A DNA stretch of 64,000 bases from Patescibacteria group bacterium (GCA_034661035.1 JAYEKM010000008.1:11677-75676); one strand, 5' to 3'. Shown: positions 1,874-60,328, numbered from the stretch's first letter. Translations and numbers: made by a program. Notes: generated from the letters alone by a model not told the origin.

Positions 1874-3049
1874 GTGACAAGAAAAATAACCACAGGAATA
1901 GATATAGGAACTTACCAAATAAAAGTGGTTATTACTGAATTGGTAAAAGACAAAAATGGAAGAAGTTTCCCTCAAATTATTGGAAGAGGTTTATGCCGAT
2001 CAAGAGGTTTGAGAAATGGGTATATCATAAATAAAGGAGAAGTAACCGAAAGTATATTACAAGCGGTTAGCCAAGCAGAAGAAACAGCTAATGTAAGAAT
2101 TAAAAAAGCTATTATTTCCATAGGAGGAGAAGGGTTAGAAGGAATTCGGGCAAAAGGAACAACCGTCATAACAAGAGCTGACTCAGAAATCACACAACTT
2201 GATGTGGAAAATGCTATTAAAGAAAGCCAGGAAAACGCTCCCTTATTAAATAAAAAAATAATCCATATAGCCACCTATGGTTTTAGTATTGATAATAGAA
2301 AAGTTTTAGGTGACCCTGTTGGTATGAAAGGAGAAAAACTAAAAGTAGAATCCCTTTTTATCGTGTGTTTAGAACAACACTATAATAACCTCATCCAAAC
2401 AGTTGAGGATGCTCAGATAGAAGTTGAGGGAGATATTGTTGCTTCCCCTATTGCAGGTAGTTGTGTTACCTTAACCAAAACTCAAAAAATAGCTGGTTGT
2501 GTTTTAGCTGACATTGGAGCTGAAACAATATCTATCGTGGTATTTGAGAACAACCTTCCTATTTCACTAGAGACTTTCCCAATGGGGTCAACAAACATAA
2601 CCCACGATATAGCCCTTGGACTCAGAATCGATTTAAGTGAAGCTGAAAAGATAAAGCATGGAGTAATGACATCAACCATTTACTCACAAAGAGAACTAGA
2701 CGAAATCATAACAGCACGTCTTGAAGATATTTTTGTTCTAATAGAAAATCATTTAAAAAAAATAAATAGAAACGGTTTACTGCCAGCAGGTATTATAATT
2801 TCAGGAGGAGGCTCTGGAATGACAACTATAAACGAATTAGCAAAAGCTTCTCTTAATCTTCCTTCAAAGATTGCTAATCTATATTTTTTGAGTTCAAATC
2901 GTGACAGAATTCAAGACTCAACATGGGCAGTCGCCTGCGGACTCTGTTTGGCTGGTTCAACTATGGAAGAAGATTCCTTTTCTGTACCAAAATTAGCAAA
3001 AAACATAAAAGATCGAGGTAAAAAATGGATTAAACAATTCTTTGTATAG
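1874..3049 (+). CDS. ftsA: cell division protein FtsA
   Basis: GTG start; actin-like ATPase N-terminus TGIDIGTYQIKVV; directly upstream of ftsZ. Confidence 0.85.
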   Translation: MTRKITTGIDIGTYQIKVVITELVKDKNGRSFPQIIGRGLCRSRGLRNGYIINKGEVTESILQAVSQAEETANVRIKKAIISIGGEGLEGIRAKGTTVITRADSEITQLDVENAIKESQENAPLLNKKIIHIATYGFSIDNRKVLGDPVGMKGEKLKVESLFIVCLEQHYNNLIQTVEDAQIEVEGDIVASPIAGSCVTLTKTQKIAGCVLADIGAETISIVVFENNLPISLETFPMGSTNITHDIALGLRIDLSEAEKIKHGVMTSTIYSQRELDEIITARLEDIFVLIENHLKKINRNGLLPAGIIISGGGSGMTTINELAKASLNLPSKIANLYFLSSNRDRIQDSTWAVACGLCLAGSTMEEDSFSVPKLAKNIKDRGKKWIKQFFV

Positions 3050-3141
3050 TTCCAGTTTTTCTGATAATATTATAATATATTATAAATATAGGGTTTGATT
3101 TAAAGGTCAAAGATTAAATTATCAACAATAAAAGAAACAAT

Positions 3142-4344
3142 ATGCCAAAAATAAATACAGCTGTTGAAGCATTCGCTAGGATAAAGATCATCGGAGTTGG
3201 TGGCGCAGGAAAAAATGCTACAAACTATATGATTAAATCAAAAGTTCAAGGAGTTGAATTTGTTGTAATCAATACAGATGCTCAAGATTTACACCATTCC
3301 TTGGCAAAAAAGAAAATCCATATTGGCAAAAACCTTACCAGTGGTTTAGGAGCTGGTATGGACCCTGACTTGGGGAAAAGAGCTGCTGAAGAAACAGCTG
3401 AAGAAATTCAAGATATTCTAAAAGGTTCAAATATGGTTTTCCTTACTGCTGGATTTGGAGGAGGAACAGGAACGGGAGCTACTCCTATCGTTGCCAAAAT
3501 TGCCAAAGATTTAGGTATATTAACAGTAGCCGTTGTAACAAAACCATTTTCTTTTGAAGGAGCTAGGAGAACTGAGATTGCAAAACAAGGACTTGAAAAG
3601 CTAAAACAAGAGGTTGATGCTCTTATTATGATACCAAATGACCGTATCTTAAATGTTGCCCCAGAAGGAACCACTATGGAAGATGCTTTTGCAATGAGTG
3701 ATAGAATTTTAAAAGAAGCGGTTGAGGGTATTTCTGATCTAATTACCGTACCAGGTAGAATTAATGTTGACTTCGCTGATATCTTAGCTGTCATGAGTAA
3801 CGCCGGTTCAGCTCTTATGGGAATTGGAAAAGCTACTGGTGAAAAACGTGCCGAGGAAGCAGCAAGAGCTGCTATTAACTCACCTCTTCTTGATATTTCT
3901 ATTGATGGAGCTAAAGGTGTCTTACTATCAGTAGCAGGTGGTGATGACCTAACTATTAACGAAATCCAAGACGCTGCTAAGATTGTAACTGAATCAATTG
4001 ATACAGATGCAAAAGTTATCTTTGGAACCTCAAGGACTGATAAACTAAAGAAAGATGAAATTAAAGTAACTGTAATAGCAACGGGTTTTAAAGACCCTAC
4101 GGGAAATGGAAATAGACTTTTCCAAAGAAACATAAAGGATGAGAAGGATGAAGAGGTAAAAAAAGAAAGTAAAGGCGGTATCTTTGGGGGTTCATCAAAC
4201 AAAAAAGAGAAAGAGGAAGTAAAGGAAGTAAAGAAAGAGAAAAAGGAGGAACCTAAACCAAAACCTAATGTTATAATCCCTGAGGATGATGAAGATGATA
4301 CTTGGGATTCTATCCCCTCCTTTTTAAAGAGAACTAAAAAATAA
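3142..4344 (+). CDS. ftsZ: cell division GTPase FtsZ
   Basis: IGVGGAGKNA and tubulin signature GGGTGTGATP; KE-rich C-terminal linker. Confidence 0.95.
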   Translation: MPKINTAVEAFARIKIIGVGGAGKNATNYMIKSKVQGVEFVVINTDAQDLHHSLAKKKIHIGKNLTSGLGAGMDPDLGKRAAEETAEEIQDILKGSNMVFLTAGFGGGTGTGATPIVAKIAKDLGILTVAVVTKPFSFEGARRTEIAKQGLEKLKQEVDALIMIPNDRILNVAPEGTTMEDAFAMSDRILKEAVEGISDLITVPGRINVDFADILAVMSNAGSALMGIGKATGEKRAEEAARAAINSPLLDISIDGAKGVLLSVAGGDDLTINEIQDAAKIVTESIDTDAKVIFGTSRTDKLKKDEIKVTVIATGFKDPTGNGNRLFQRNIKDEKDEEVKKESKGGIFGGSSNKKEKEEVKEVKKEKKEEPKPKPNVIIPEDDEDDTWDSIPSFLKRTKK

Positions 4345-4348
4345 ACCT

Positions 4349-5263
4349 ATGTACGATTTAGCTATCATCGGAGGTGGGCCAGCTGGAGTAGCTGCTGGTG
4401 TTTATGCTTCTAGAAAAAAAATTAAAACAGTCCTATTTGCGGAAAGTTTTGGCGGACAGAGTGTCGGCTCGTCAAAAATAGAAAACTGGATAGGAACCGT
4501 GGCTATCTCTGGCCCAGAATTAGCCAAGAATCTTGAAGATCATCTAAGAGCTTATTCTGCTGATATTGTTGATATAAAAAAAGAAGTGGTAGAAAAAATC
4601 GAGCAACAATCACCAGACTTGTTTAAAATCAAAACAAACCAACAAGAATATTCCGTTAAGGCTATCCTGATAGCAACTGGTAGTTCTAGAAAGAAATTAA
4701 CCTGTTTGGGAGCTGAAAAGTTTGAGGGAAAAGGATTAGTTTACTGTGCAACTTGTGACGGACCTCTTTTTACAGGAAAAGATGTCGTTATCATCGGAGG
4801 AGGTAATTCTGCTTTTGAATCAGCTTCTCAACTTCTAGCCTATGCTAAAAGTGTTACCCTACTCAATCGATCAGAAAAATTTAAAGCTGATGAAGTGACA
4901 ATCCAAAAAATGTCTACAATTGAAAATCTTAATTTAGTTATTAACTCTCAAATTAAAGAAATAAAAGGAGATAATTTTATTAAATCAATTATCTATGAAA
5001 ACACGAAAACTAACGAGGAAAAAGAAATACCTGTAGAAGGTGTTTTTGTTGAAGTTGGTTCATCTCCAACAACAGAATTTATTGATTTTATTGATAAAAA
5101 TGAGCATGAAGCCATAATAGTAGATCCAATGACACAAACAACCTCTGTAGAAGGAATTTGGGCTGCTGGAGACTGTACTCACGGACTATATCACCAGAAC
5201 TGTATCGCTGTTGGCGACGGAATCAAAGCCTTAGAAAATATCTATTCTTGGCTACAAAAATAA
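4349..5263 (+). CDS. trxB: thioredoxin-disulfide reductase
   Basis: FAD site IIGGGPAGVAAG and redox-active CATCDG motif. Confidence 0.9.
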   Translation: MYDLAIIGGGPAGVAAGVYASRKKIKTVLFAESFGGQSVGSSKIENWIGTVAISGPELAKNLEDHLRAYSADIVDIKKEVVEKIEQQSPDLFKIKTNQQEYSVKAILIATGSSRKKLTCLGAEKFEGKGLVYCATCDGPLFTGKDVVIIGGGNSAFESASQLLAYAKSVTLLNRSEKFKADEVTIQKMSTIENLNLVINSQIKEIKGDNFIKSIIYENTKTNEEKEIPVEGVFVEVGSSPTTEFIDFIDKNEHEAIIVDPMTQTTSVEGIWAAGDCTHGLYHQNCIAVGDGIKALENIYSWLQK

Positions 5264-5290
5264 AAACTGCTTAATAAGCAGTTTTTATTT
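5262..5290. terminator. bidirectional hairpin terminator between trxB (+) and a membrane gene (-)
   Basis: AAAACTGCTTA/TAAGCAGTTTT hairpin with A-run 5' and T-run 3'. Confidence 0.6.
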
Positions 5291-5305
5291 TAATATTTTT
5301 TATAA

Positions 5306-6001
5306 TTAAGTTTCCTTAGGCTCCTCTTTTTCTAATCTTTTATCTTCTTTTGTAACTATAGTTTCAATTACTTTTTTCTTTGTATGAAAATTCATTAGAG
5401 AAAATGTAACCATTCCAGCAAAGATTATACCGACAATGTTTAAACCAAATAAAATCAAAGCATTCGTCATCATTGTCCAACTCATTTCAGCCAAACCGAT
5501 GCCAATCAGAGCAATTGGAGGAATTAAAGCTACAGCAATAGCCACACCAGGTAAAGTCTCATTTAGTTTAGGTTTAATAAGAGCAAAGGTTGCCGCAAAT
5601 CCAGCTACTACTGACACAGCCACGTATAGGAGAGAAGGGTTTGAACTTACAACTAAATTCTCTGGTATTTTGCCAGCTCCAAAAATAAGAGTAGCTACAG
5701 CTGATACTCCTACACCGACAGTTAGCGATTTAACTATAGTTTGAATAGACCTTCTTATTAATTTTGAATCAGCAATAGTAATACCCAAAGATAAACTCAG
5801 TATAGGAGAAAGTAATGGAGCAATTAACATACTTCCAATTACAATAGCAACATTTCCTAATAAAACACCAAAAACAGCAGTTAAAACAGACAATGCCATC
5901 ATGAGAAAAAAGTCCTGACTGGGAGTACTTTGAGTTATTAATTTCTCAACAGCGTCAGCCTTATCCCTCTCTTCCAAACCATTAAATATAAATAATCTCA
6001 T
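5306..6001 (-). CDS. integral membrane protein (DUF389/TIGR00341-like guess)
   Basis: 231 aa with about 6 hydrophobic helices; the family assignment is from memory only. Confidence 0.35.
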   Translation of the reverse strand: MRLFIFNGLEERDKADAVEKLITQSTPSQDFFLMMALSVLTAVFGVLLGNVAIVIGSMLIAPLLSPILSLSLGITIADSKLIRRSIQTIVKSLTVGVGVSAVATLIFGAGKIPENLVVSSNPSLLYVAVSVVAGFAATFALIKPKLNETLPGVAIAVALIPPIALIGIGLAEMSWTMMTNALILFGLNIVGIIFAGMVTFSLMNFHTKKKVIETIVTKEDKRLEKEEPKET

Positions 6002-22992: not shown

Positions 22993-23159
22993 ATTTTACA
23001 GAAAAATGTTTTATGTATATGTGTTACAATCAAATGAAGACAAAAGGTTTCGTGCAGATTATACAAAAAATTTAAAGTTAAGATTTGACCGTCATAATAA
23101 AAAAATTTTATTTAACAATACAAAAACATACTATGGAAAAACATTTATTAGAAAAAGGG

Positions 23160-23184
23160 TCAAATCTTATTTAATAGGGTAAAT
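23160..23184 (+). promoter_or_regulatory. conserved 5' UTR/promoter module directly abutting the PAP2 start codon
   Basis: TCAAATCTTATTTAATAGGGTAAAT-ATG; 24/25 identical to the module at 27228 on the opposite strand. Confidence 0.5.
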
Positions 23185-52844: not shown

Positions 52845-53900
52845 TTATTTTTGATAGATAAAGATAATTTTTTTAATAAGGTCCTCTAGATTGTGACTCC
52901 TTTCAACCTCTTTTCTTAAATCTAATTTAATTTTTTCCTTTTCGTGTTCAGACAGATTAATTATTCCTATTATTTTTTGTGATAAATCAGAGCTATCTTT
53001 TAATTTAAAGAATAATTTATCTTGGTGGACACCAAAAACATTCTTTGATGAATCATTACTAGAAATTGTTATTAAGCCACAGGACATAGCTTCCAAGATA
53101 GTTTTGTCTAAACTGCCCGTATGACTAGTATTTACAAATAAGTTAGACTCTTGCAAATAATTAACAATATTATTTGTAGGGACTGGGCCAATAAAATTTA
53201 TTACCTCTTCTAAGCCGTCATTTTTAACTTTCTTTTTTAAGCTTTCCAAGTATTTTTCTTGACCTGCTTTACCCACACCCCCAATAATATCTAATTCAAT
53301 TTTTGAATTATATTTTTGCAAGATTTTTATTGCGTCAATTAATGTCTCATAATCTTTGATAGGAGAAATCCTACCAACGGTAACAACCCGAAAGGCCTTA
53401 TTTTTAATAAGGCTATCTTTACTTATAAATTGTTCTACATCAATTCCATGCCCTGTGATATTTAATTTCTTAGTTTTCAAACGAAACGATTCGGGAGTAG
53501 CTGAAAAAATAATATAAGTTAATTTTTCGGCCAATCTTAGCTTTAAATCGACACTTTTATGCATATACCAAAGTCCTATCTTTTTACCCATTAAACGCCA
53601 AAATAAGCCTCCTAGAACAATATACTCCGGGTTCATATGAACAAAGACGTTATCGTAATTTTTTCGTTCAGACCAAATATACTTATAAAAATTAAAAGCA
53701 TACTTAAGGCGTGATTTCCCCTGTTCCTTTCCTAAGGATAAGACTTTCACATTATTAGGTAAGTCGTAATCCCTTGCCTCTAAGGCTATTACGATTACCT
53801 GTTCACAGTGTTTTGCAAATTCATTAACCCACCCATGAAAAAAACCGAGGACACCATCATCATTTTTATCTACTTTTTGTGTAAGTATTAATAGTTTCAT
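52845..53900 (-). CDS. family 4 glycosyltransferase
   Basis: NTSHTGSLDKTILEAMSCGLITISS (E-x7-E region). Confidence 0.75.
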   Translation of the reverse strand: MKLLILTQKVDKNDDGVLGFFHGWVNEFAKHCEQVIVIALEARDYDLPNNVKVLSLGKEQGKSRLKYAFNFYKYIWSERKNYDNVFVHMNPEYIVLGGLFWRLMGKKIGLWYMHKSVDLKLRLAEKLTYIIFSATPESFRLKTKKLNITGHGIDVEQFISKDSLIKNKAFRVVTVGRISPIKDYETLIDAIKILQKYNSKIELDIIGGVGKAGQEKYLESLKKKVKNDGLEEVINFIGPVPTNNIVNYLQESNLFVNTSHTGSLDKTILEAMSCGLITISSNDSSKNVFGVHQDKLFFKLKDSSDLSQKIIGIINLSEHEKEKIKLDLRKEVERSHNLEDLIKKIIFIYQK

Positions 53901-54160
53901 ATTTTAGAATTAATGAAATACGATTTGAGCCTATTTTGTAAAAACATTCTACCATGGTAAGTCTTCAAATACTTCTCTCTTTTTATAGCATCATCTTCAT
54001 CTAAACATGATTCATAATACAATAAAATTAAAGGTTTTCTATGTTTAGTTGAATTCACCAGACCTGTATTATGTTGCTCAAATCTTAATTTTAAATTTTT
54101 TGTAGCTCCTGTATACCATTTACCATCTTTTTCGCTTTGTATTATGTGAGTATATATCAT
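53897..54160 (-). CDS. small GIY-YIG nuclease-domain protein (87 aa)
   Basis: MIYTHIIQSEKDGKWYTGATKNLKLRFEQH..LLYYESCLDEDDAIKREKYLK. Its ends overlap both neighbouring GT4 genes by 4 nt. Confidence 0.7.
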   Translation of the reverse strand: MIYTHIIQSEKDGKWYTGATKNLKLRFEQHNTGLVNSTKHRKPLILLYYESCLDEDDAIKREKYLKTYHGRMFLQNRLKSYFINSKI

Positions 54161-55311
54161 AAAGTCTCTAACGGGACTAGTATATTATTTATCGTTCGGA
54201 ACCAAGCATCCTGTAAAATTTTAAGAACCTCATCTTCAGTTTGAGACATCTTCCTCGAATAATCATTATAAGCTTTCTGCTCAAACTCCCTCAACAAATC
54301 AGGATATTGCTGAGCTTTAATAATATTCTCAACCAAACATTCTTTATCTCCAACACTACATAAAAATGCATTATTGCTACTCAAAACTTCTCCGACAATT
54401 CCCACTTTAGTAGTTAAAATTGGACAATGAGAAAGAACTGCCTCGCTTAAGGTTAAACCATAACCCTCATAATCAGAAGTTGAAAGAAATAAATCAGCCG
54501 TTTTATAATAAGTAATTGGATCACCTACCCATTTCTTAAAAATTATATTTTCTTCTAGACCAGCTCTTCTAGCTTGTTGTTTTAATGTTTTACGGAGAGA
54601 ACCTTCCCCCACAATAACCAAGCCTGTTTTAGGGAATATTTTAACAACTTTTTTCATGGCTGAAATAGCCATAGAAATATTTTTTTCTTTTTCTAAACGA
54701 CTCATCATAACCATAATAAATTTAAATTGAGGATATCTTTCTTTTAAATTAAAACTAGGAGTAAAAACCTGGATAAAAGTAGGGCTAGTAAAAATAGGGA
54801 GAACAGTAACTTTAGTCTGTAATTCCTCAGACAGCGAAGACTTAATTCTTTTAGAAACAACTCTAATGTGATCAGCCTTGGATAGTAAAAAAGTAGACAT
54901 CCAAGATCTAATCCTATTAGTGAAAGAATGTCTTATAAAATAATGATTAAAAATATCAGTATGAATCTGAAGTTCCAATTTAGCCTTTAGTTTTTTAACT
55001 ATCCTCCAAGCAATAAACCCTGTTTCGTAAGGGTCTTGAGCTGTTACTAAATCAACATCCTTTAATTTGGTAGCAATTTTTATTGCATTTAAAATATAAT
55101 GAAATTTATTTCGTGAGTTGGTGGGGTAAACAATAACTTTTTCGCTTATTTTTATCTTTTTTTTATTTGGGATATCTTTTGACTGTTTATTCAAAACAAT
55201 TATGTGGAGTTCGCCTACTATCGTGCCATAGTTAACCATTCTCCGACAAACAGAGCTACTTTCTTCAAATATTTTTTTGTCAGTGCTAATCATTAAAATT
55301 TTCATATTCAT
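54157..55311 (-). CDS. family 4 glycosyltransferase
   Basis: STSDYEGYGLTLSEAVLSHCPILTTKVG. Confidence 0.75.
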   Translation of the reverse strand: MNMKILMISTDKKIFEESSSVCRRMVNYGTIVGELHIIVLNKQSKDIPNKKKIKISEKVIVYPTNSRNKFHYILNAIKIATKLKDVDLVTAQDPYETGFIAWRIVKKLKAKLELQIHTDIFNHYFIRHSFTNRIRSWMSTFLLSKADHIRVVSKRIKSSLSEELQTKVTVLPIFTSPTFIQVFTPSFNLKERYPQFKFIMVMMSRLEKEKNISMAISAMKKVVKIFPKTGLVIVGEGSLRKTLKQQARRAGLEENIIFKKWVGDPITYYKTADLFLSTSDYEGYGLTLSEAVLSHCPILTTKVGIVGEVLSSNNAFLCSVGDKECLVENIIKAQQYPDLLREFEQKAYNDYSRKMSQTEDEVLKILQDAWFRTINNILVPLETL

Positions 55312-55372
55312 TGACTTTTTTTTTGTTTAATATATTATATTAGTAATCATTATGAAAAGCGTCGTCAAAGGG

Positions 55373-55900
55373 CTAGTCCCGCGAAGGCGCTTTTTGTTTT
55401 TCTAGCTTCTTTAATTCACTCCTCACATCTTCCAAATACTGAATTGCTCTTTTCCAACCGCAAGCTTTTCTTAACAGAAAAGAAGTTTTCTTTCTATTAG
55501 GACTTAAAGCAACCTTGAATTTATTTTTGTTTTCTAAATATTTAACTAAACTAGCGAAATCTCCATCACTCGTTATTAAAATAGCATTATCATATTCTAA
55601 CAACAAATCAACAGTTGTTAATGTTAAGTCAACGTCAACATTACCTTTTGGTTTCCCATTACTTTTTTTTGAAATTTCTTTAAAAGAAATTTCAAAGCCA
55701 GCATTTCTTAACAAGGAATAAAATTTTTCATTTTCTTTTATGTACCCTATAAACCAAAAAGCTTTAACAACTTTATACTTATCTTTTAAATAAATTCTTA
55801 ATTTAAAAATATCTACCGCCCAACCATCATCTTTCGTACCAAGATACAAGTTCTGAGCATCTATAAAAGCATAATTATTTTCTTTGTTTTTATTTTTCAT
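55373..55900 (-). CDS. NYN-domain (LabA-like PIN-fold) protein, paralogue 1
   Basis: NNYAFIDAQNL..NVDVDLTL..ILITSDGDFASLV; the C-terminus and stop sit in a GC-rich hairpin. Confidence 0.7.
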   Translation of the reverse strand: MKNKNKENNYAFIDAQNLYLGTKDDGWAVDIFKLRIYLKDKYKVVKAFWFIGYIKENEKFYSLLRNAGFEISFKEISKKSNGKPKGNVDVDLTLTTVDLLLEYDNAILITSDGDFASLVKYLENKNKFKVALSPNRKKTSFLLRKACGWKRAIQYLEDVRSELKKLEKQKAPSRD

Positions 55901-57086
55901 ATTTTTTAAGAGCCTCTTCTACAGAATTTGCTACAATAAGCCCCTCCCCTTTTTCAAACTCTTTCTTACTTTCCATTAATTCTGAATGGAAAATATCTTC
56001 TATCAAAAGTTTTTCTAAATTATCTAAAGTATTTTGAATGGAAAATTGTTTTGATTTTTCGTAAGCGTTTTGGATAATCCCTTGTCTAAAAAGATCATTC
56101 TTTAAGACTTTAAAAATAGCTTTTTTCAAAGCTTCTTTGTCATTAGGCTCAACCAAAATCCCTTCTACATTATTTTCAATCAATTCAGGTAAAGAACAGA
56201 TATTAGTAGTAATCACGGGCAAACCTAAAGTCATTGCTTCCACAGTATCAAAAGAAAAACTTTCCCAATTAGTATTGAAAACAAAAATATCAGCCAATTG
56301 TTTTTGTTTTAATAATTCTTCTCTAGTTAGTTGCCCTGTCAAAATAACTTTTCCCTGCAAACCTAACCTTTCGATTGTTTCTTCTAATTCTTCTTTTTGA
56401 GGGCCACCTCCAACAATAACTAATTTAACTTCTGGAATTTCTTGCAAAATATTCGGCATCGTTTCAATCAACACTTTAAAGCCTTTCCAAGGTACAAGTC
56501 TCCCCACAGATAACAACACATTACTTTCGACTTTATGGACTTTATGAACTTTTAACTCGTTTATTTCTATCCCGTTATAAATTACCTTAATTTTTTCAGG
56601 AGCAATCCCCCAATTCACAATAACTTGTTTAAAGTAATGACTAGGAACAATAATTTTATCAGCCTGTTTAACTACACAAAATTGAATTTTCTTAAAAAAC
56701 CGAACTTTTAAGCCATAGTTATTTCTCGTAGAGAAAGTATCTAAATCATCTTTTACACCAAACCTCTGAACCCCTTGCTCCCATGCATAATCACCAGCAA
56801 TCCTAATGAAAAACTTTTTCCTTAAAAATTTGTTAGCTAACATAGTCGGCAAACCAACACTCACTGGATCTTGAGCATAAATAACATCAACCCCCTTAGC
56901 TCTTTTAAGAATTTTGAAAAAATAAATAATATGACGAATAATTTTTGGTAAATTCCTAACTTCACCAAAAGAAAGGACCACCACTTCAATCCCCCTTTTT
57001 GGTAATTCATCAAAAAGAAGCTTTGAATAAGTAGCCGGTCCACCAATATCCGGCGGGTATATTCCTGTTGTAATTAAAATTCTCAT
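55890..57086 (-). CDS. family 4 glycosyltransferase
   Basis: FNTNWESFSFDTVEAMTLGLPVITT; AAGGAG SD. Confidence 0.75.
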   Translation of the reverse strand: MRILITTGIYPPDIGGPATYSKLLFDELPKRGIEVVVLSFGEVRNLPKIIRHIIYFFKILKRAKGVDVIYAQDPVSVGLPTMLANKFLRKKFFIRIAGDYAWEQGVQRFGVKDDLDTFSTRNNYGLKVRFFKKIQFCVVKQADKIIVPSHYFKQVIVNWGIAPEKIKVIYNGIEINELKVHKVHKVESNVLLSVGRLVPWKGFKVLIETMPNILQEIPEVKLVIVGGGPQKEELEETIERLGLQGKVILTGQLTREELLKQKQLADIFVFNTNWESFSFDTVEAMTLGLPVITTNICSLPELIENNVEGILVEPNDKEALKKAIFKVLKNDLFRQGIIQNAYEKSKQFSIQNTLDNLEKLLIEDIFHSELMESKKEFEKGEGLIVANSVEEALKKYEK

Positions 57087-57152
57087 ATATTTAACTTGAC
57101 TTTTTTACTCCTTAAGATAATATTAAACTAATCACCAACGGAAAAGATTACC

Positions 57153-57683
57153 CTACAAGGTTTCGTCCTTGTAGGGCCTTTTCTTTTTATAAGAAAGCTT
57201 CTTATCTAAATTGTTCATAAACCTTAAATATGGTCTAACTATTTTAAATCTCAAAAGAGCAGAAAATTTAAAGAAGTTCGGAATCAAAACCGCTTTTAGC
57301 TTATTCTGTTCTAATAGATATTTGACCAAACAATAAAAATCCCCATCTCCACTTATAATTATTGCTTTATCAAAATTAGGATATTCAATCATTGTTTGTA
57401 ATACTAACTCAGCATCAACGTTCCCTTTAGTAGTTCCATCCTTATATCCCAAAGTTGGTTTAAAAACACAAATAAAGCCAGCTTCTTGTAAGAACTTATA
57501 TAAATCATTATTTCCCTCTACGAAACCAATAAATAGAAAAGCTTTATTAATCTTATATTTTTCTTTCAGATAAACACGAAACCTAGCAAAGTCCAATTTC
57601 CAACCTAAAGACTGAATACTTAAATTTAAGTTCTGGCTATCTATAAAAGCATAATTATTTTTTTTATCTTTCTTTTGCATCAT
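57153..57683 (-). CDS. NYN-domain (LabA-like PIN-fold) protein, paralogue 2
   Basis: NNYAFIDSQNL..NVDAELVL..IIISGDGDFYCLV; about 45% identical to paralogue 1; the C-terminus overlaps hairpin CCCTACAAGG-N6-CCTTGTAGGG. Confidence 0.7.
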   Translation of the reverse strand: MMQKKDKKNNYAFIDSQNLNLSIQSLGWKLDFARFRVYLKEKYKINKAFLFIGFVEGNNDLYKFLQEAGFICVFKPTLGYKDGTTKGNVDAELVLQTMIEYPNFDKAIIISGDGDFYCLVKYLLEQNKLKAVLIPNFFKFSALLRFKIVRPYLRFMNNLDKKLSYKKKRPYKDETL

Positions 57684-58881
57684 ATAATTTTTCTCTGTTG
57701 GTAAAAAGAATCATTTCTTTCATCTCCCGTGCGATCTTCTCCCAGTCATACTCTTTTACGACCATTTGATAAGCTTGTTTTACGACGCGATCTCTAAGGT
57801 CTTGGTTGCCAAGTAAAAATTTCACTTTTTCAGCAATTGATTCTGGATCTTTAACCTGACAAAACAAACCCGTCTCATTATCTTTTAGAAAATCAGGGAT
57901 TCCTCCAACAGAAGTCGCAATGACAGGTGTTTTGGTTATCATAGCCTCCAAAAAAGAATTACCTAACCCCTCTGACAAAGAAGGTCTAATAAAGATATCT
58001 GAGATTTTCAAGTATTTAACTAGTTCATCCTGTTTGATATAAGAAATAAAAATAACCCTGTCTTCCAAGTTTCTTTCCGTTGTTATTTTTTCTAAATTTG
58101 TTTTATCTTCTCCATCCCCTATTAAAATAAGTTTGATATTATCTGGCAAATAGGTCAGCGCCTTAATTAAATAATCTAAACCATTCTTGTAAGTCAGTCT
58201 ACCTGTGTGGATTATAAACCTATCTTCCAATTGTTTACCTAGCTCTTGTTCAAGTTTTCTTAGATCTTTTATTGAAGATGTTTGTGAAAATACTTTTATA
58301 TCAACCCCGTTAGGAATAACCTCAATCGGGCATTGAGCCCCCAAAGTCTTCGCCCAATCAGCCAAATAATTACTAATACATTGAATTTGATCAGCTCTTT
58401 TGAAGATATTCTCAAACTGACCTTTTATAAATTTAGTTCTTTTCTGAATATATTTTTGACTATCACCCTCTTGTAAAGTAAGTAAGAAAGGAACTTGTGG
58501 ATTACTTTTTTTAAATTTTGATGCAGCTAATCCCGCGTAACTTGCCATAATCGCCCAAATTGAATCATAATTCCCTTGTTTATTTAGTTTTTTTGCCATA
58601 TATTGACCAAAAAAAGCAAAGAATACCTTGTCAACCATCGGATGACCTATACCCACTCTAAAGACAGTTATATTGCCAATTTTCTCCTTCTGAGCAAGAT
58701 TTTTATCCATTTTAGCCGTTATCATATGAAATTCAATATCAGTTAATCTGTCTGTTATTTCTTTAACAGCTACTTCTGCCCCTCCCACAAAAGGATAATA
58801 GGCAGTCGAAAACATAAGTACTTTCTTAGACATATTATTATTGTAACAGAAAACCTTAAGTTTAGAAGAATTATTATTCAT
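57664..58881 (-). CDS. family 4 glycosyltransferase
   Basis: RPSLSEGLGNSFLEAMITKTPVIATSVGG; the likely start is the internal MSKKVLMFSTAYYP. Confidence 0.75.
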   Translation of the reverse strand: MNNNSSKLKVFCYNNNMSKKVLMFSTAYYPFVGGAEVAVKEITDRLTDIEFHMITAKMDKNLAQKEKIGNITVFRVGIGHPMVDKVFFAFFGQYMAKKLNKQGNYDSIWAIMASYAGLAASKFKKSNPQVPFLLTLQEGDSQKYIQKRTKFIKGQFENIFKRADQIQCISNYLADWAKTLGAQCPIEVIPNGVDIKVFSQTSSIKDLRKLEQELGKQLEDRFIIHTGRLTYKNGLDYLIKALTYLPDNIKLILIGDGEDKTNLEKITTERNLEDRVIFISYIKQDELVKYLKISDIFIRPSLSEGLGNSFLEAMITKTPVIATSVGGIPDFLKDNETGLFCQVKDPESIAEKVKFLLGNQDLRDRVVKQAYQMVVKEYDWEKIAREMKEMILFTNREKLYDAKER

Positions 58882-60328
58882 CTAATTTAGTAGCAAAAAC
58901 AACTCCGGTGATGGCTAAAGAAACAATTCCCATCAAAGAAATCGTCCACTTATTGATAAGAGGTTCATCAAAATCATCAACAGGGACTTGTTGCTGAAGA
59001 TCAGATGAAGTTGCTGTCTCTGTTTTATCTTCTAGAATTACCTCTCCATCTTCTTCTGGCTCAACCTCTTCAATTAATGGTTTTGTGGCTTTATTAATAT
59101 TTGCTACTTGAGGAACAACAGGAATCGGAACAACGATTTTTTGATCTATCACAGACTCTTTCCTATAATCGAAAGCTATACTACCATTTGGGTATAACAA
59201 TTGAATATCGTCACCTTCTTTTGGAAAAAGATTAGTAACATGACTTGATAATTTTAATTGATTATCAGCTAACATTATTGTATTTTTGGGAAATGTCCAA
59301 AAATTATCACCGACCTTTAATCTCCACCAAGATAAGTTTAATTCATACTGCGAAGGATTATTAATGTTTACAAAAGAATTGGAATCGTCAAACAAAACAT
59401 CTTTGATAAAAACTCCTGAAGAAATTACTTTTGTTTTAACCCTGTCCATAGCCGAATGTTTCCCTGAAGAAACCTCTAGGGTAATTAAATATTCACCTGG
59501 ATATTGAAAAGCGTGTAAAACATTTTGACCAGCAACCCTTGAACCATCACCAAAAGACCAACTGTACTTAGCATTCTCAATAGGTTGGTTTTCTAATCCA
59601 AGAGATTCCCCTTTAAACATAAAGTCTGCCCCTGCAATAGGAATATCTTGAAAAGAAATAATATGAGCCTTAATCTGACTAACAAAAAGAATACTACCAG
59701 ACCCTAGATCTAAACCTTGATCTTCTTGCTCACTAGGAGGAATTATTTCATCGTTTTCCTCAACAGGTTCATCTGGTTGGTTTCCTCCATTTGTACAAGC
59801 TGGAGTAGGAGTACCGGATTGCCAAGTCGAATCAATTTTTTGTAGTGAGTCACCATCACCGTTAGCTCCCCATTCTGATAAGTAATCTACACTGTCAACA
59901 TCAATCAATTCATCATCCCTTAAAATTAAACCTTCGCCAGAATTAGAAAGAGAAAAAGCTGAATCAAAAACTAAACCAGAAAAATTAGGATAATCTACCT
60001 CAAATTTTTCAAAGTTATCAATAATCAATGCATAAGTTTTAGTAGGTAAAACAAGAGAATCCCCTTCAATAATTGACTTTATTCTATGGTTAGTTTCTGC
60101 CTCAAACACCTTCCAGCCTGAAAGATCAACATCCTCTGTAGTTGTATTATAAATTTCAATCCATTCCCTCCCACTATCGCTACCTTCTAAATTGTACATT
60201 ACTTCTGTTATTTCAATTTGGGAAAAAACAAAACTAGGAGACAAAAATAAAACAGACAAAGCAGTTACTAAAAGTAACTGCTTTGTCTGTTTTAAATTTT
60301 TATTTATTCTCATCTGGCTTCTTAACAT
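58874..60328 (-). CDS. secreted lamin-tail-domain (LTD) + PKD-domain protein with C-terminal membrane anchor
   Basis: Signal peptide; LTD ITEVMYNLEGSDSGREWIEIYN..LSGW; PKD YSWSFGDGS..HAFQYPGEYLITLEV; C-terminal TM WTISLMGIVSLAITGVVF. Confidence 0.7.
   Translation of the reverse strand: MLRSQMRINKNLKQTKQLLLVTALSVLFLSPSFVFSQIEITEVMYNLEGSDSGREWIEIYNTTTEDVDLSGWKVFEAETNHRIKSIIEGDSLVLPTKTYALIIDNFEKFEVDYPNFSGLVFDSAFSLSNSGEGLILRDDELIDVDSVDYLSEWGANGDGDSLQKIDSTWQSGTPTPACTNGGNQPDEPVEENDEIIPPSEQEDQGLDLGSGSILFVSQIKAHIISFQDIPIAGADFMFKGESLGLENQPIENAKYSWSFGDGSRVAGQNVLHAFQYPGEYLITLEVSSGKHSAMDRVKTKVISSGVFIKDVLFDDSNSFVNINNPSQYELNLSWWRLKVGDNFWTFPKNTIMLADNQLKLSSHVTNLFPKEGDDIQLLYPNGSIAFDYRKESVIDQKIVVPIPVVPQVANINKATKPLIEEVEPEEDGEVILEDKTETATSSDLQQQVPVDDFDEPLINKWTISLMGIVSLAITGVVFATKLDE

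Follow-up and report, generated by a model that had tools for sequence, protein, structure and literature searches.

Predicted small-RNA genes converge on LabA-like NYN nuclease genes embedded in a glycosyltransferase operon of a Patescibacteria group bacterium

A glycosyltransferase (GT) operon of a Patescibacteria group bacterium (GCA_034661035.1, JAYEKM010000008.1:11677-75676; the whole stretch of 64,000 nucleotides (nt) is called the window in the following) contains two genes of LabA-like NYN nucleases, NYN1 and NYN2, and one gene of a small GIY-YIG nuclease. At the 3' side of both NYN genes, on the opposite strand, a conserved element is found that is predicted to be a small-RNA gene converging on the nuclease gene. 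Judging from sequence and distribution, and with confidence a little better than even, we regard these pairs of NYN and RNA genes as toxin-antitoxin-like accessory modules, and the GIY-YIG gene as a separate cassette of the homing type. All three nuclease open reading frames (ORFs) are present on the minus strand as described in an initial annotation of the window, each NYN gene following a GT4 gene, and their Pfam scores (given with the features below) lie above the curated gathering scores of 24.2 bits for NYN (PF01936) and 22.6 bits for GIY-YIG (PF01541), which bears out the family assignments made there. The NYN genes and the predicted RNA genes, the latter scored with R1, a covariance model of the small RNA that was run over 83 sources and the window, are situated as follows:

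55373-55900, minus strand: NYN1, gene of a LabA-like NYN nuclease of 175 amino acids (aa) (Pfam NYN 73.8 bits; PDB 2QIP, E 5.5e-13)
57153-57683, minus strand: NYN2, gene of a LabA-like NYN (PIN-fold) nuclease of 176 aa (Pfam NYN 47.7 bits)
55311-55401, plus strand: predicted small-RNA gene 1, convergent to NYN1, with a promoter-like site (R1 56.4 bits, E 5.5e-8, full length); -35 box TTGACT at 55311-55316, -10 box TATTAT at 55333-55338, start at about 55345, hairpin at about 55352-55397, U-run
57096-57190, plus strand: predicted small-RNA gene 2, convergent to NYN2, with a promoter-like site (R1 57.2 bits, E 3.8e-8, full length); -35 box TTGACT at 57096-57101, -10 box TAATAT at 57118-57123, start at about 57130, 5' tail AAUCACC, hairpin at about 57141-57184 with the loop GGUUUCGUCC and the NYN2 stop codon inside it, U-run

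The 3' flanks of NYN genes were compared first in close relatives and then in 80 species-representative genomes or loci picked by an NYN profile search; the subfamily as a whole comprises at least 574 species-level loci. In both samples, an element of about 95 nt is situated at the 3' side of nearly every NYN gene. On the strand opposite to NYN it exhibits, in this order, TTGAC(A/T), a spacer of 16-18 nt, (TGn)TAnnnT, a start followed by a tail, a hairpin and a U-run. Around 30-37 nt separate the end of the -10 box from the hairpin loop and are taken up by the predicted start, by a tail containing (A)GAAUCAC and by the stem's 5' arm, and the hairpin itself reads AAAAGCACC-UC-UUAAGG-UUUCGU-CCUUAA-GC-GGUGCUUUU. 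By its sequence, the element is a sigma-70 promoter with a short 5' tail and an intrinsic terminator, predicted to yield a convergent small RNA, about 55-65 nt long, that runs towards NYN. With R1, 88 full-length copies were detected in the 83 sources, nearly all of them converging on the 3' end of an NYN gene (departures from this layout occur in loci L022, L056, L073 and L023), and only two copies in the window, 55311-55401 (+) and 57096-57190 (+), both beside NYN genes. The -35 box of small-RNA gene 1 abuts the start codon of the GT gene GT_b, the NYN1 stop codon lies in the apical part of its hairpin, and its flank is near-identical in L002 and conserved in L006, L010 and L012.

Concerning the promoter, a test anchored on the loop alone found an antisense TTGAC at a distance of 63-73 nt in 55 of 61 NYN loci, whereas shuffled sequences gave an expectation of 1.45 and a maximum of 5; a TAnnnT at 16-18 nt spacing follows in 54 of these 55 loci, with an extended -10 box in 23. 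Concerning the hairpin, 91.1% of the alignment cells pair (shuffles: 75.4%; slid controls: 47-59%), double-change (compensatory) cells number 231 versus 62, and compensatory changes are found at all 17 pairs. G-U and U-G combinations outnumber A-C and C-A combinations by 149 to 32, which assigns the selected structure to the antisense transcript. Relative to the hairpin, the stop codon of NYN is located upstream (23 cases), in the 5' arm (19), apically (2), in the 3' arm (10) or downstream (7); since it thus occurs before, inside or after the hairpin, with all three frames used, conservation acts at the RNA level and not at the protein level. Maintenance of the hairpin through the protein C-terminus could be ruled out, as some of the hairpins are situated outside the ORF and the others are read in any of the three frames.

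GC-rich hairpins had already been recognized at the ends of both NYN genes, and there is indeed a hairpin at each; they are not simple hairpins, however, and are better described as the terminator of the convergent small-RNA gene, the one at NYN1 being weak on the NYN strand. In NYN2, the hairpin on the NYN strand has 11 base pairs (bp), with -23.3 kcal/mol (z -6.5), as compared to -22.4 kcal/mol (z -5.7) on the plus strand, and in NYN1 the weak NYN strand (-12.5 kcal/mol, z -1.9) is surpassed by the opposite strand (-18.1 kcal/mol, z -2.6). A search with Rfam 15 gave no relevant match at E<=1 in the window between 53000 and 59000 and none at gathering score in 10 loci, R1 has no match beside distant NYN homologs (27-32% identity) on alphaproteobacterial plasmids, and among the titles and abstracts returned by literature searches aimed at NYN or LabA, none describes such an RNA partner. 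Going by these searches, the small RNA is specific to this NYN subfamily, and a conserved, NYN-associated convergent small RNA outside the Rfam families is a new result that would define a toxin-antitoxin-like module.

Apparent orphan copies of the RNA gene were mostly artefacts of a simple ORF caller, as tblastn revealed an adjoining intact NYN gene; in L022, an R1 RNA is retained beside a decayed NYN gene. Extra small-RNA copies that are not matched by an extra NYN gene exist as a tandem pair in L056:1291-1498 and, directly upstream of NYN, in L073:5879-5972. Furthermore, 18 of 86 flanks contain DnaA-box-like sites (TTATCCACA / TGTGGATAA, at most one mismatch) in the 60 nt past the -35 box, with around 2% expected; a distance of 10-15 nt to the -35 box is frequent. 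The sites occur among others in L025, L034, L044, L052, L057, L071, L075, L076, L078, L080, L084 and L086, and are absent at both copies of the window.

The two NYN proteins share 46% identity (81/176, E 4e-46) and the motif NNYAFID(A/S)QNL, close to the 45% estimated at first. In an alignment of 35 sequences, residues D89, D112 and D114 do not vary, and D14 and N17 are kept in at least 90% of the sequences; all five are found in NYN1 and NYN2, so that the catalytic aspartates whose conservation had been put up for checking (D14, D89, D112 and D114) are kept in both. Both proteins are PF01936 members with an intact acidic active site, and nuclease activity is predicted for them. Pfam family, fold and acidic residues are shared with LabA and with VPA0982 (PDB 2QIP, NYN.COG1432), for which group an RNA partner is not known, unlike the subfamily of NYN1 and NYN2. 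The bacterial LabA-like group is described as functionally unstudied, with none of the PF01936 proteins characterised as nucleases, and cyanobacterial LabA is a regulator (PMC5499597). NYN1 starts 11 nt before the end of the preceding gene GT_c, and NYN2 overlaps the 3' end of GT_d by 20 nt. Because of these overlaps with upstream GT genes, and because no obvious promoter of their own is found, both NYN genes of the window are probably co-transcribed with the operon. Typical NYN genes elsewhere have their own -10 box near the start codon. No small ORF that might encode a type II (VapBC-like) antitoxin is conserved beside NYN, and the upstream regions are unrelated between loci.

The six ORFs flanking the nuclease genes are, according to Pfam, GT4/Glycos_transf_1 enzymes. 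The genes of the operon backbone referred to here are:

57664-58881, minus strand: GT_d, GT4 glycosyltransferase, first GT of the backbone (Pfam Glycos_transf_1 151 bits, plus Glyco_transf_4)
55890-57086, minus strand: GT_c, GT4 glycosyltransferase (Pfam)
54157-55311, minus strand: GT_b, GT4 glycosyltransferase (Pfam)
52845-53900, minus strand: GT_a, glycosyltransferase (Pfam Glycos_transf_1 87 bits)

The backbone order (LTD/PKD protein, GT_d, GT_c, GT_b, GT_a, GT_e onward) is widely conserved in relatives, and its junctions (b/a being that between GT_b and GT_a, with c/b and d/c likewise) are usually ATGA overlaps, as found in many relatives within a set of 80 metagenomic loci selected for a GT_a homolog. 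Orthologs of GT_d with 67-72% identity are found in L002, L091, L094 and L106. L094 possesses GT_d, GT_c, GT_b and GT_a at 65-80% identity with ATGA-overlapping junctions and neither an NYN nor a GIY-YIG gene, and 75 of the 80 GT_a loci, including the closest relatives L091, L092 and L094, are devoid of the NYN module and of its RNA element, which are thus present in only five. Relatives with the GT operon and without these genes therefore exist, and a universally conserved, vertically inherited association is excluded. Conversely, a GT lies within two genes of NYN in just 3 of the 80 species-level NYN loci, which rules out a general functional link between NYN and glycosyltransferases.

The position of the modules varies as well. 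NYN1 orthologs with 71-91% identity in L002, L006 and L010 are situated directly upstream of GT_a and not of GT_b; NYN1-type genes adjoin GT_a in L002, L006, L010 and L012, and those of L002 and L006 (85-91% identical) lie at b/a, whereas NYN1 of the window lies at c/b. The same applies to NYN2-type genes (81-87% identity), which are found just upstream of GT_a in L093, L106 and L169, those of L093 and L106 (85-87% identical) lying at b/a, and at d/c in the window. Between NYN1 and its L002 ortholog identity amounts to 91%, as against 49-73% for the flanking GTs. From this patchiness, NYN and GIY-YIG genes are accessory insertions that vary between close relatives and not working parts of the operon, in line with the selfish insertion that the initial annotation had listed among several possible roles. 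The duplication that its term "tandem GT4-NYN modules" would suggest must be rejected: adjacent GT4 genes are only 23-27% identical versus 46% for the NYN pair, so a GT-NYN pair was not tandemly duplicated.

The 5' end of GT_a is a recurrent insertion site in relatives, where the junction table of the 80 loci contains NYN-small-RNA modules, GIY-YIG cassettes and PemK genes, and duplications of this 5' end, 41 nt and 66 nt long, flank cassettes in L006, L135, L103 and L177. The 41-nt direct repeat flanks the NYN module of L006, the sole locus of this kind. An identity of the NYN module as an insertion sequence or transposon, including one with an IS200/605-like end, was rejected, as no conserved left end, inverted repeats or transposase were found. 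A gene of an IS200-like Y1 transposase (RAYT-like, 240 aa) lies between GT_b and the NYN2-type module at L093:3564-4286. Homologs from cultivated plasmids and phages were considered as experimental handles and dismissed: plasmids yielded only NYN genes of 27-32% identity and no RNA, and phage records yielded none. Apart from Patescibacteria, in which the subfamily mainly occurs, it is found in metagenome-assembled genomes labelled Acidobacteria, Gemmatimonadota, Rokubacteria, Omnitrophota and Chloroflexota, and in one labelled Woesearchaeota (DPANN archaeon). With slightly more confidence than doubt, we conclude that the genes of the ancestral operon overlapped by ATGA and that three junctions have since been colonised by small autonomous nuclease modules. 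By prediction, each NYN module would place a bidirectional terminator between GT genes, such that GT_c and GT_b would need read-through, or else weak promoters within the 60-nt spacers, to be expressed.

Known toxin genes are found at the same junctions. PemK/MazF genes are situated at backbone junctions in L002 (d/c), L092 (b/a), L096, L117 (c/b) and L177. No protein antitoxin gene accompanies these PemK genes; they are followed by a conserved convergent promoter and hairpin element of their own, distinct from R1 (L002:7640-7735, L092:4895-5000, L096:4929-5000, L117:3734-3800, L177:455-600 and L022:2047-2145), which consists of TTGAC/TTGCnT, 17 nt, TATnAn, then AGUAUAnAU..CCUUnGGG.UCGCC and a covarying hairpin. 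This element may represent a second family of RNA antitoxins, and by its predicted structure the combination of PemK and convergent RNA parallels the NYN layout in a bona fide toxin family. Given that PemK thus has a different RNA at its side, the R1 RNA of L022 is preferably seen as an orphan copy and not as a PemK partner.

At c/b, L091 contains an RHH antitoxin gene (3105-3338; RHH_1 31.2 bits), followed by a frameshifted RelE/YafQ-like ORF, and the position of NYN1 in the window is that of the RelE-like gene in L091. The last 36 or so codons of GT_c in the window (about 55893-56000, minus strand) are 78% identical to the C-terminal half of this RHH (CopG) antitoxin, so GT_c is fused to a toxin-antitoxin remnant. 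A C-terminal extension of GT_c as a by-product of the NYN insertion was ruled out, since the RHH remnant is also found in L106 and L091. Within 4 kb of L052 (5995-10142), a SocA/Panacea antitoxin gene, a 107-aa ORF, four NYN genes (one of them frameshifted) and three RNA copies are assembled. In L006 an HD_4 gene (RelA/SpoT-type HD, 179 aa, 5140-5679) occupies the place at which the window possesses NYN2 and L002 PemK, and it is followed by two reverse-strand ORFs with no Pfam match.

In the mechanism that we propose, the NYN module would be a two-gene unit composed of the gene of a metal-dependent PIN-fold RNase and of that of a small RNA (about 55-65 nt), whose transcription would start at a strong sigma-70 promoter on the other strand and run towards NYN. 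Both transcripts would share one bidirectional terminator hairpin, which often holds the last NYN codons and the stop codon, and the small RNA would restrain the nuclease as an RNA antitoxin; expression, toxicity and the mode of inhibition are all features that we infer. Such a restraint is proposed because the loop UUUCGU contains a YUNR-like UUCG and because the overlap covers the last NYN codons. By an antisense route, the complementary terminator hairpins would first pair loop to loop through the YUNR-type UUCG loop, and a duplex over the NYN 3' end would then result in cleavage or in a non-stop mRNA. By the alternative route, the RNA would bind the NYN protein directly, which would explain why its sequence is conserved across phyla. 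What characterizes a type I antisense RNA, namely overlap with the toxin mRNA and a promoter and terminator of its own, is found in the NYN module as a sequence prediction.

Some features of known systems recur in the NYN module, each in a different combination. In SymE/SymR and RalR/RalA of E. coli, a nuclease-type protein is checked by a small antisense RNA, as proposed for NYN; SymR overlaps the 5' end of symE, however, the folds of SymE and RalR are unrelated to NYN, and both systems are confined to enterobacteria. In type III systems (ToxIN, CptIN, TenpIN) an endoribonuclease is neutralised by a structured protein-binding RNA, which would match the conservation of the NYN-associated RNA. 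In type III, the antitoxin consists of tandem repeats that precede the toxin gene on its own strand and are processed by the toxin, whereas the NYN module possesses a usually single, convergent RNA gene downstream of a putative toxin of different fold. VapC of the type II system VapBC resembles NYN as a small, metal-dependent RNase of the PIN superfamily that often occurs in multi-copy accessory modules; it has a protein antitoxin, VapB, encoded upstream, whereas NYN has no antitoxin ORF. NYN belongs to a different branch of the PIN-like superfamily than VapC (PMC5499597).

The closest layout is that of par of the Enterococcus faecalis plasmid pAD1 (Fst RNA I/RNA II; Fst/Ldr family). There, toxin mRNA and an antitoxin RNA of around 40 nt are transcribed from convergent promoters, end at a common bidirectional terminator and pair by their loops via a YUNR U-turn (PMC7472228). 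The NYN module is similar in its convergent promoters, in the size range of the RNA (around 40-65 nt in the two systems), and in a shared terminator with complementary stem-loops able to kiss and a YUNR-type loop. There are also differences: the par toxin is a membrane peptide of 33 aa, whereas NYN is a nuclease of 175 aa; par possesses direct repeats that provide a second pairing region at the 5' end, which the NYN module lacks; and the YUNR-like UUCG is situated on the small RNA of the NYN module and not on the mRNA as in par, with an RNA sequence that is conserved across phyla. In Bacillus subtilis, type I pairs such as txpA/RatA and bsrG/SR4 possess an antisense RNA that overlaps the 3' end of the toxin mRNA and promotes its degradation. 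The NYN module shares this overlap at the 3' end, but the B. subtilis toxins are small peptides and the overlaps are 75-120 nt long, whereas in the NYN module the overlap is essentially the terminator hairpin. For a further such pair, yonT/SR6, SR6 is described as promoting degradation of the yonT toxin mRNA (PMC5848175).

Several points weigh against an RNA antitoxin. NYN is not a small hydrophobic peptide: with 175-176 aa it is a soluble-looking nuclease. Type I toxins are normally small membrane peptides. A second pairing as in par, between the RNA tail and the NYN 5' region, was tried and rejected, as cognate pairs reach -8.93 and non-cognate pairs -8.92 kcal/mol. The RNA keeps its loop, its stem and its 5' tail, (A)GAAUCAC, across phyla, and for a purely cis-antisense mechanism such sequence conservation is unnecessary. 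In L023:2186-2781, the sole such case among the 88 copies, the small-RNA gene (2687-2781, plus strand) stands in tandem with NYN, a layout which suggests that the RNA can act without antisense overlap. The NYN1-type module, moreover, stays beside GT_a across lineages down to 71% protein identity, which would fit some local function too. Conservation across phyla, the missing second pairing region and the tandem copy of L023 would favour protein binding as a possible mode. A variable guide in the 5' tail was also considered and ruled out: the tail is conserved, not variable, so that RNA-guided targeting of diverse sequences finds no support.

A rather unlikely explanation is that NYN and its RNA form a non-toxic housekeeping pair, in which the RNA serves as cis-antisense regulator, substrate or cofactor, and which is patchy because it is dispensable. 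The strong conservation of loop, stem and tail fits specific recognition by a protein, the tandem copy of L023 indicates that antisense overlap is not obligatory, toxicity of NYN is a prediction, and cyanobacterial LabA is a regulator (PMC5499597). A housekeeping role is hard to reconcile, on the other hand, with multi-copy loci such as L052, where the copies cluster with a toxin-antitoxin gene, with the replacement of the module by known toxins at identical junctions, with PemK toxins sharing the layout of gene and convergent RNA, and with the orphan RNA that has outlived its decayed NYN gene.

Less probable still is that the nucleases are anti-phage defence genes gathered in a variable surface-glycan locus, i.e., a defence island associated with receptor variation. 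Both NYN proteins have weak matches to the PADLOC model "LabA-like NYN family nuclease" (26.6 and 25.8 bits), but these span only the NYN domain of a model of 310 aa, and GIY-YIG and PemK have no PADLOC match. The GT4-conflict family of Pfam (cut-off 26 bits) is matched by GT_b (38 bits) and GT_d (29.9 bits), with GT_c just below (24.1 bits), yet all of these GTs match the generic Glycos_transf_1 far more strongly. Toxin-antitoxin modules often act in abortive infection, so the defence reading is compatible with the toxin-antitoxin reading and does not exclude it; against defence, no other defence genes are seen in the locus and no NYN2 homologs were found in phage records.

That the element is no functional small-RNA gene at all, but a bidirectional terminator combined with a DNA site (a recombination or insertion site, or an operator) at the end of a mobile NYN cassette, seems quite improbable to us. 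The element is the exact right-hand limit of sequence conservation and abuts the next start codon, A and T runs are found on both sides of the stem, and DnaA-box-like sites occur immediately past it more often than expected (in 18 of 86 flanks, with an expectation of 2% or so). However, a promoter with conserved -35 box, spacer length and -10 box keeps a constant distance to the hairpin, the ratio of 149 to 32 points to a single-strand transcript as the object of selection and not to duplex DNA, and inverted repeats, target-site duplications and a conserved left end were all not found. Very improbable, and already largely refuted by distribution, is an explanation built on the mRNA processing suggested in the initial annotation, in which NYN proteins would be dedicated processing enzymes of the GT polycistron and would cut at the hairpins to set GT stoichiometry: NYN genes are co-oriented with the upstream GTs and overlap them, hairpins lie between GT cistrons, and the NYN1-type is constant beside GT_a in L002, L006, L010 and L012, but the module is missing from the 75 GT_a loci mentioned above (L091, L092 and L094 among them), only 3 of the 80 loci examined out of at least 574 have a GT within two genes, and hairpin and small RNA go with NYN in unrelated contexts and phyla.

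The GIY-YIG gene exhibits a different pattern. Its features in the window are:

53897-54160, minus strand: GIY-YIG nuclease gene, 87 aa, catalytic domain only (Pfam GIY-YIG 54.7 bits)
54164-54175, minus strand: CCCGTTAGAGAC, left arm of a 12-bp inverted repeat of type A (see below), the right arm of which is absent in the window

The gene overlaps the neighbouring genes GT_a and GT_b by a 4-nt ATGA each, so the overlaps reported for it earlier are real. Residues Y3, Y16, R26, H30 and E62, at least 95% conserved in 118 homologs, are all kept. It belongs to a very large family (more than 2400 clusters) of proteins of 84-87 aa that consist of the catalytic domain only; its members occur in unrelated contexts, in some cases as two copies and in some cases next to ParE or HicAB modules. 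No DNA-binding domain is contained in the 87-aa protein, and its score with TIGR01453, the model of group I intron endonucleases, is far below the cut-off (16 versus 56 bits). Elsewhere in the window (23006-23176, plus strand), another short GIY-YIG-like ORF of 58 aa, which shares 33% identity with the 87-aa protein and with 18 bits stays under the Pfam cut-off, looks like a truncated copy of such a gene.

At the 5' end of GT_a, a GIY-YIG gene is present in the window, L091, L135, L103 and L177, and absent in L094, L002, L006 and L106. Two types of cassette can be distinguished. Type A (L091:4725-5004, L155:7900-8180, and L158) is intergenic and flanked by a 12-bp inverted repeat, which is CCCGTTAGAGAC...GTCTCTAACGGG around the GIY-YIG ORF of L091 and the variant CCCGTTAGAGAA...TTCTCTAACGGG in L155 and L158. 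Type B (L135:5001-5430, L103:5000-5440, L177:560-1000) is inserted inside GT_a after codon 22 (between ..CAYGGG and TGG). The original 66 nt are left upstream as a remnant, which ends in a stop codon borne by the cassette and is closed by CCTGCCCGATGA; the cassette carries a replacement copy of the 22 codons, 74-83% identical to the remnant, so GT_a stays intact. The gene of the window is a chimera, with the first 20 or so codons and the left flank of type A and the remainder of type B. The left repeat arm has become coding sequence for the C-terminus of GT_b (..VPLETL*), whereas in L091 CCCGTTAGAGACCTT falls after the GT_b stop codon; GT_b reads through this arm because the ancestral stop was lost. 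The chimeric gene and the replaced 66-nt 5' ends of GT_a would be consistent with co-conversion of flanks, and the pattern as a whole fits a mobile cassette, putatively of the homing type, with the 5' end of GT_a as its target. It resembles the free-standing homing endonucleases of T4-like phages (Seg of the GIY-YIG type, Mob of the HNH type), which perform intronless homing, in being a small nuclease ORF wedged at conserved genes, patchy in relatives and with chimeric flanks that may be co-converted, whereas it differs in its 87 aa, its lack of a DNA-binding domain and its bacterial chromosome host. For the layout of type B, inside GT_a and with replacement of the first 22 codons, no description was found.

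Further upstream in the window, a perfect 20-bp palindrome, AAAACAGACAAAGCAGTTAC-loop-GTAACTGCTTTGTCTGTTTT, is situated at 60248-60294 inside the 5' end of the LTD/PKD gene and is the strongest terminator-like match of the scan. It lies just downstream of an overlap of 29 nt (60300-60328) between the LTD/PKD gene and the 3' end of a TrwB-like ATPase gene.

Taken one step further, and tentatively, since we hold this with somewhat less than even confidence, the NYN subfamily and its RNA of around 60 nt might constitute a new class of RNA-antitoxin systems, a hybrid of par-like and type III-like features with a PIN-superfamily RNase as toxin, and with the PemK-RNA pairs as a parallel class, all of them, together with the GIY-YIG cassettes that insert inside a GT gene and bring along a replacement 5' end, preferring ATGA junctions of a surface-glycan operon. 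Thousands of bacterial LabA-like NYN proteins exist for which no function is established, such that a predicted RNA partner would provide the first concrete handle on a large subfamily. We know of almost no toxin-antitoxin systems with RNA antitoxins, and of almost no regulatory RNAs, in the Candidate Phyla Radiation; if the NYN modules are true toxin-antitoxin systems, RNA antitoxins would extend to nucleases of the PIN superfamily and to this radiation. The combination of PemK and RNA, if true, would mean that a classic type II toxin family is able to run on an RNA antitoxin. Concerning the host operons, the bidirectional terminators brought in by the modules probably re-partition operon transcription, and nuclease genes inside biosynthetic operons of these genomes would have to be annotated as mobile passengers and not as components of the pathway.

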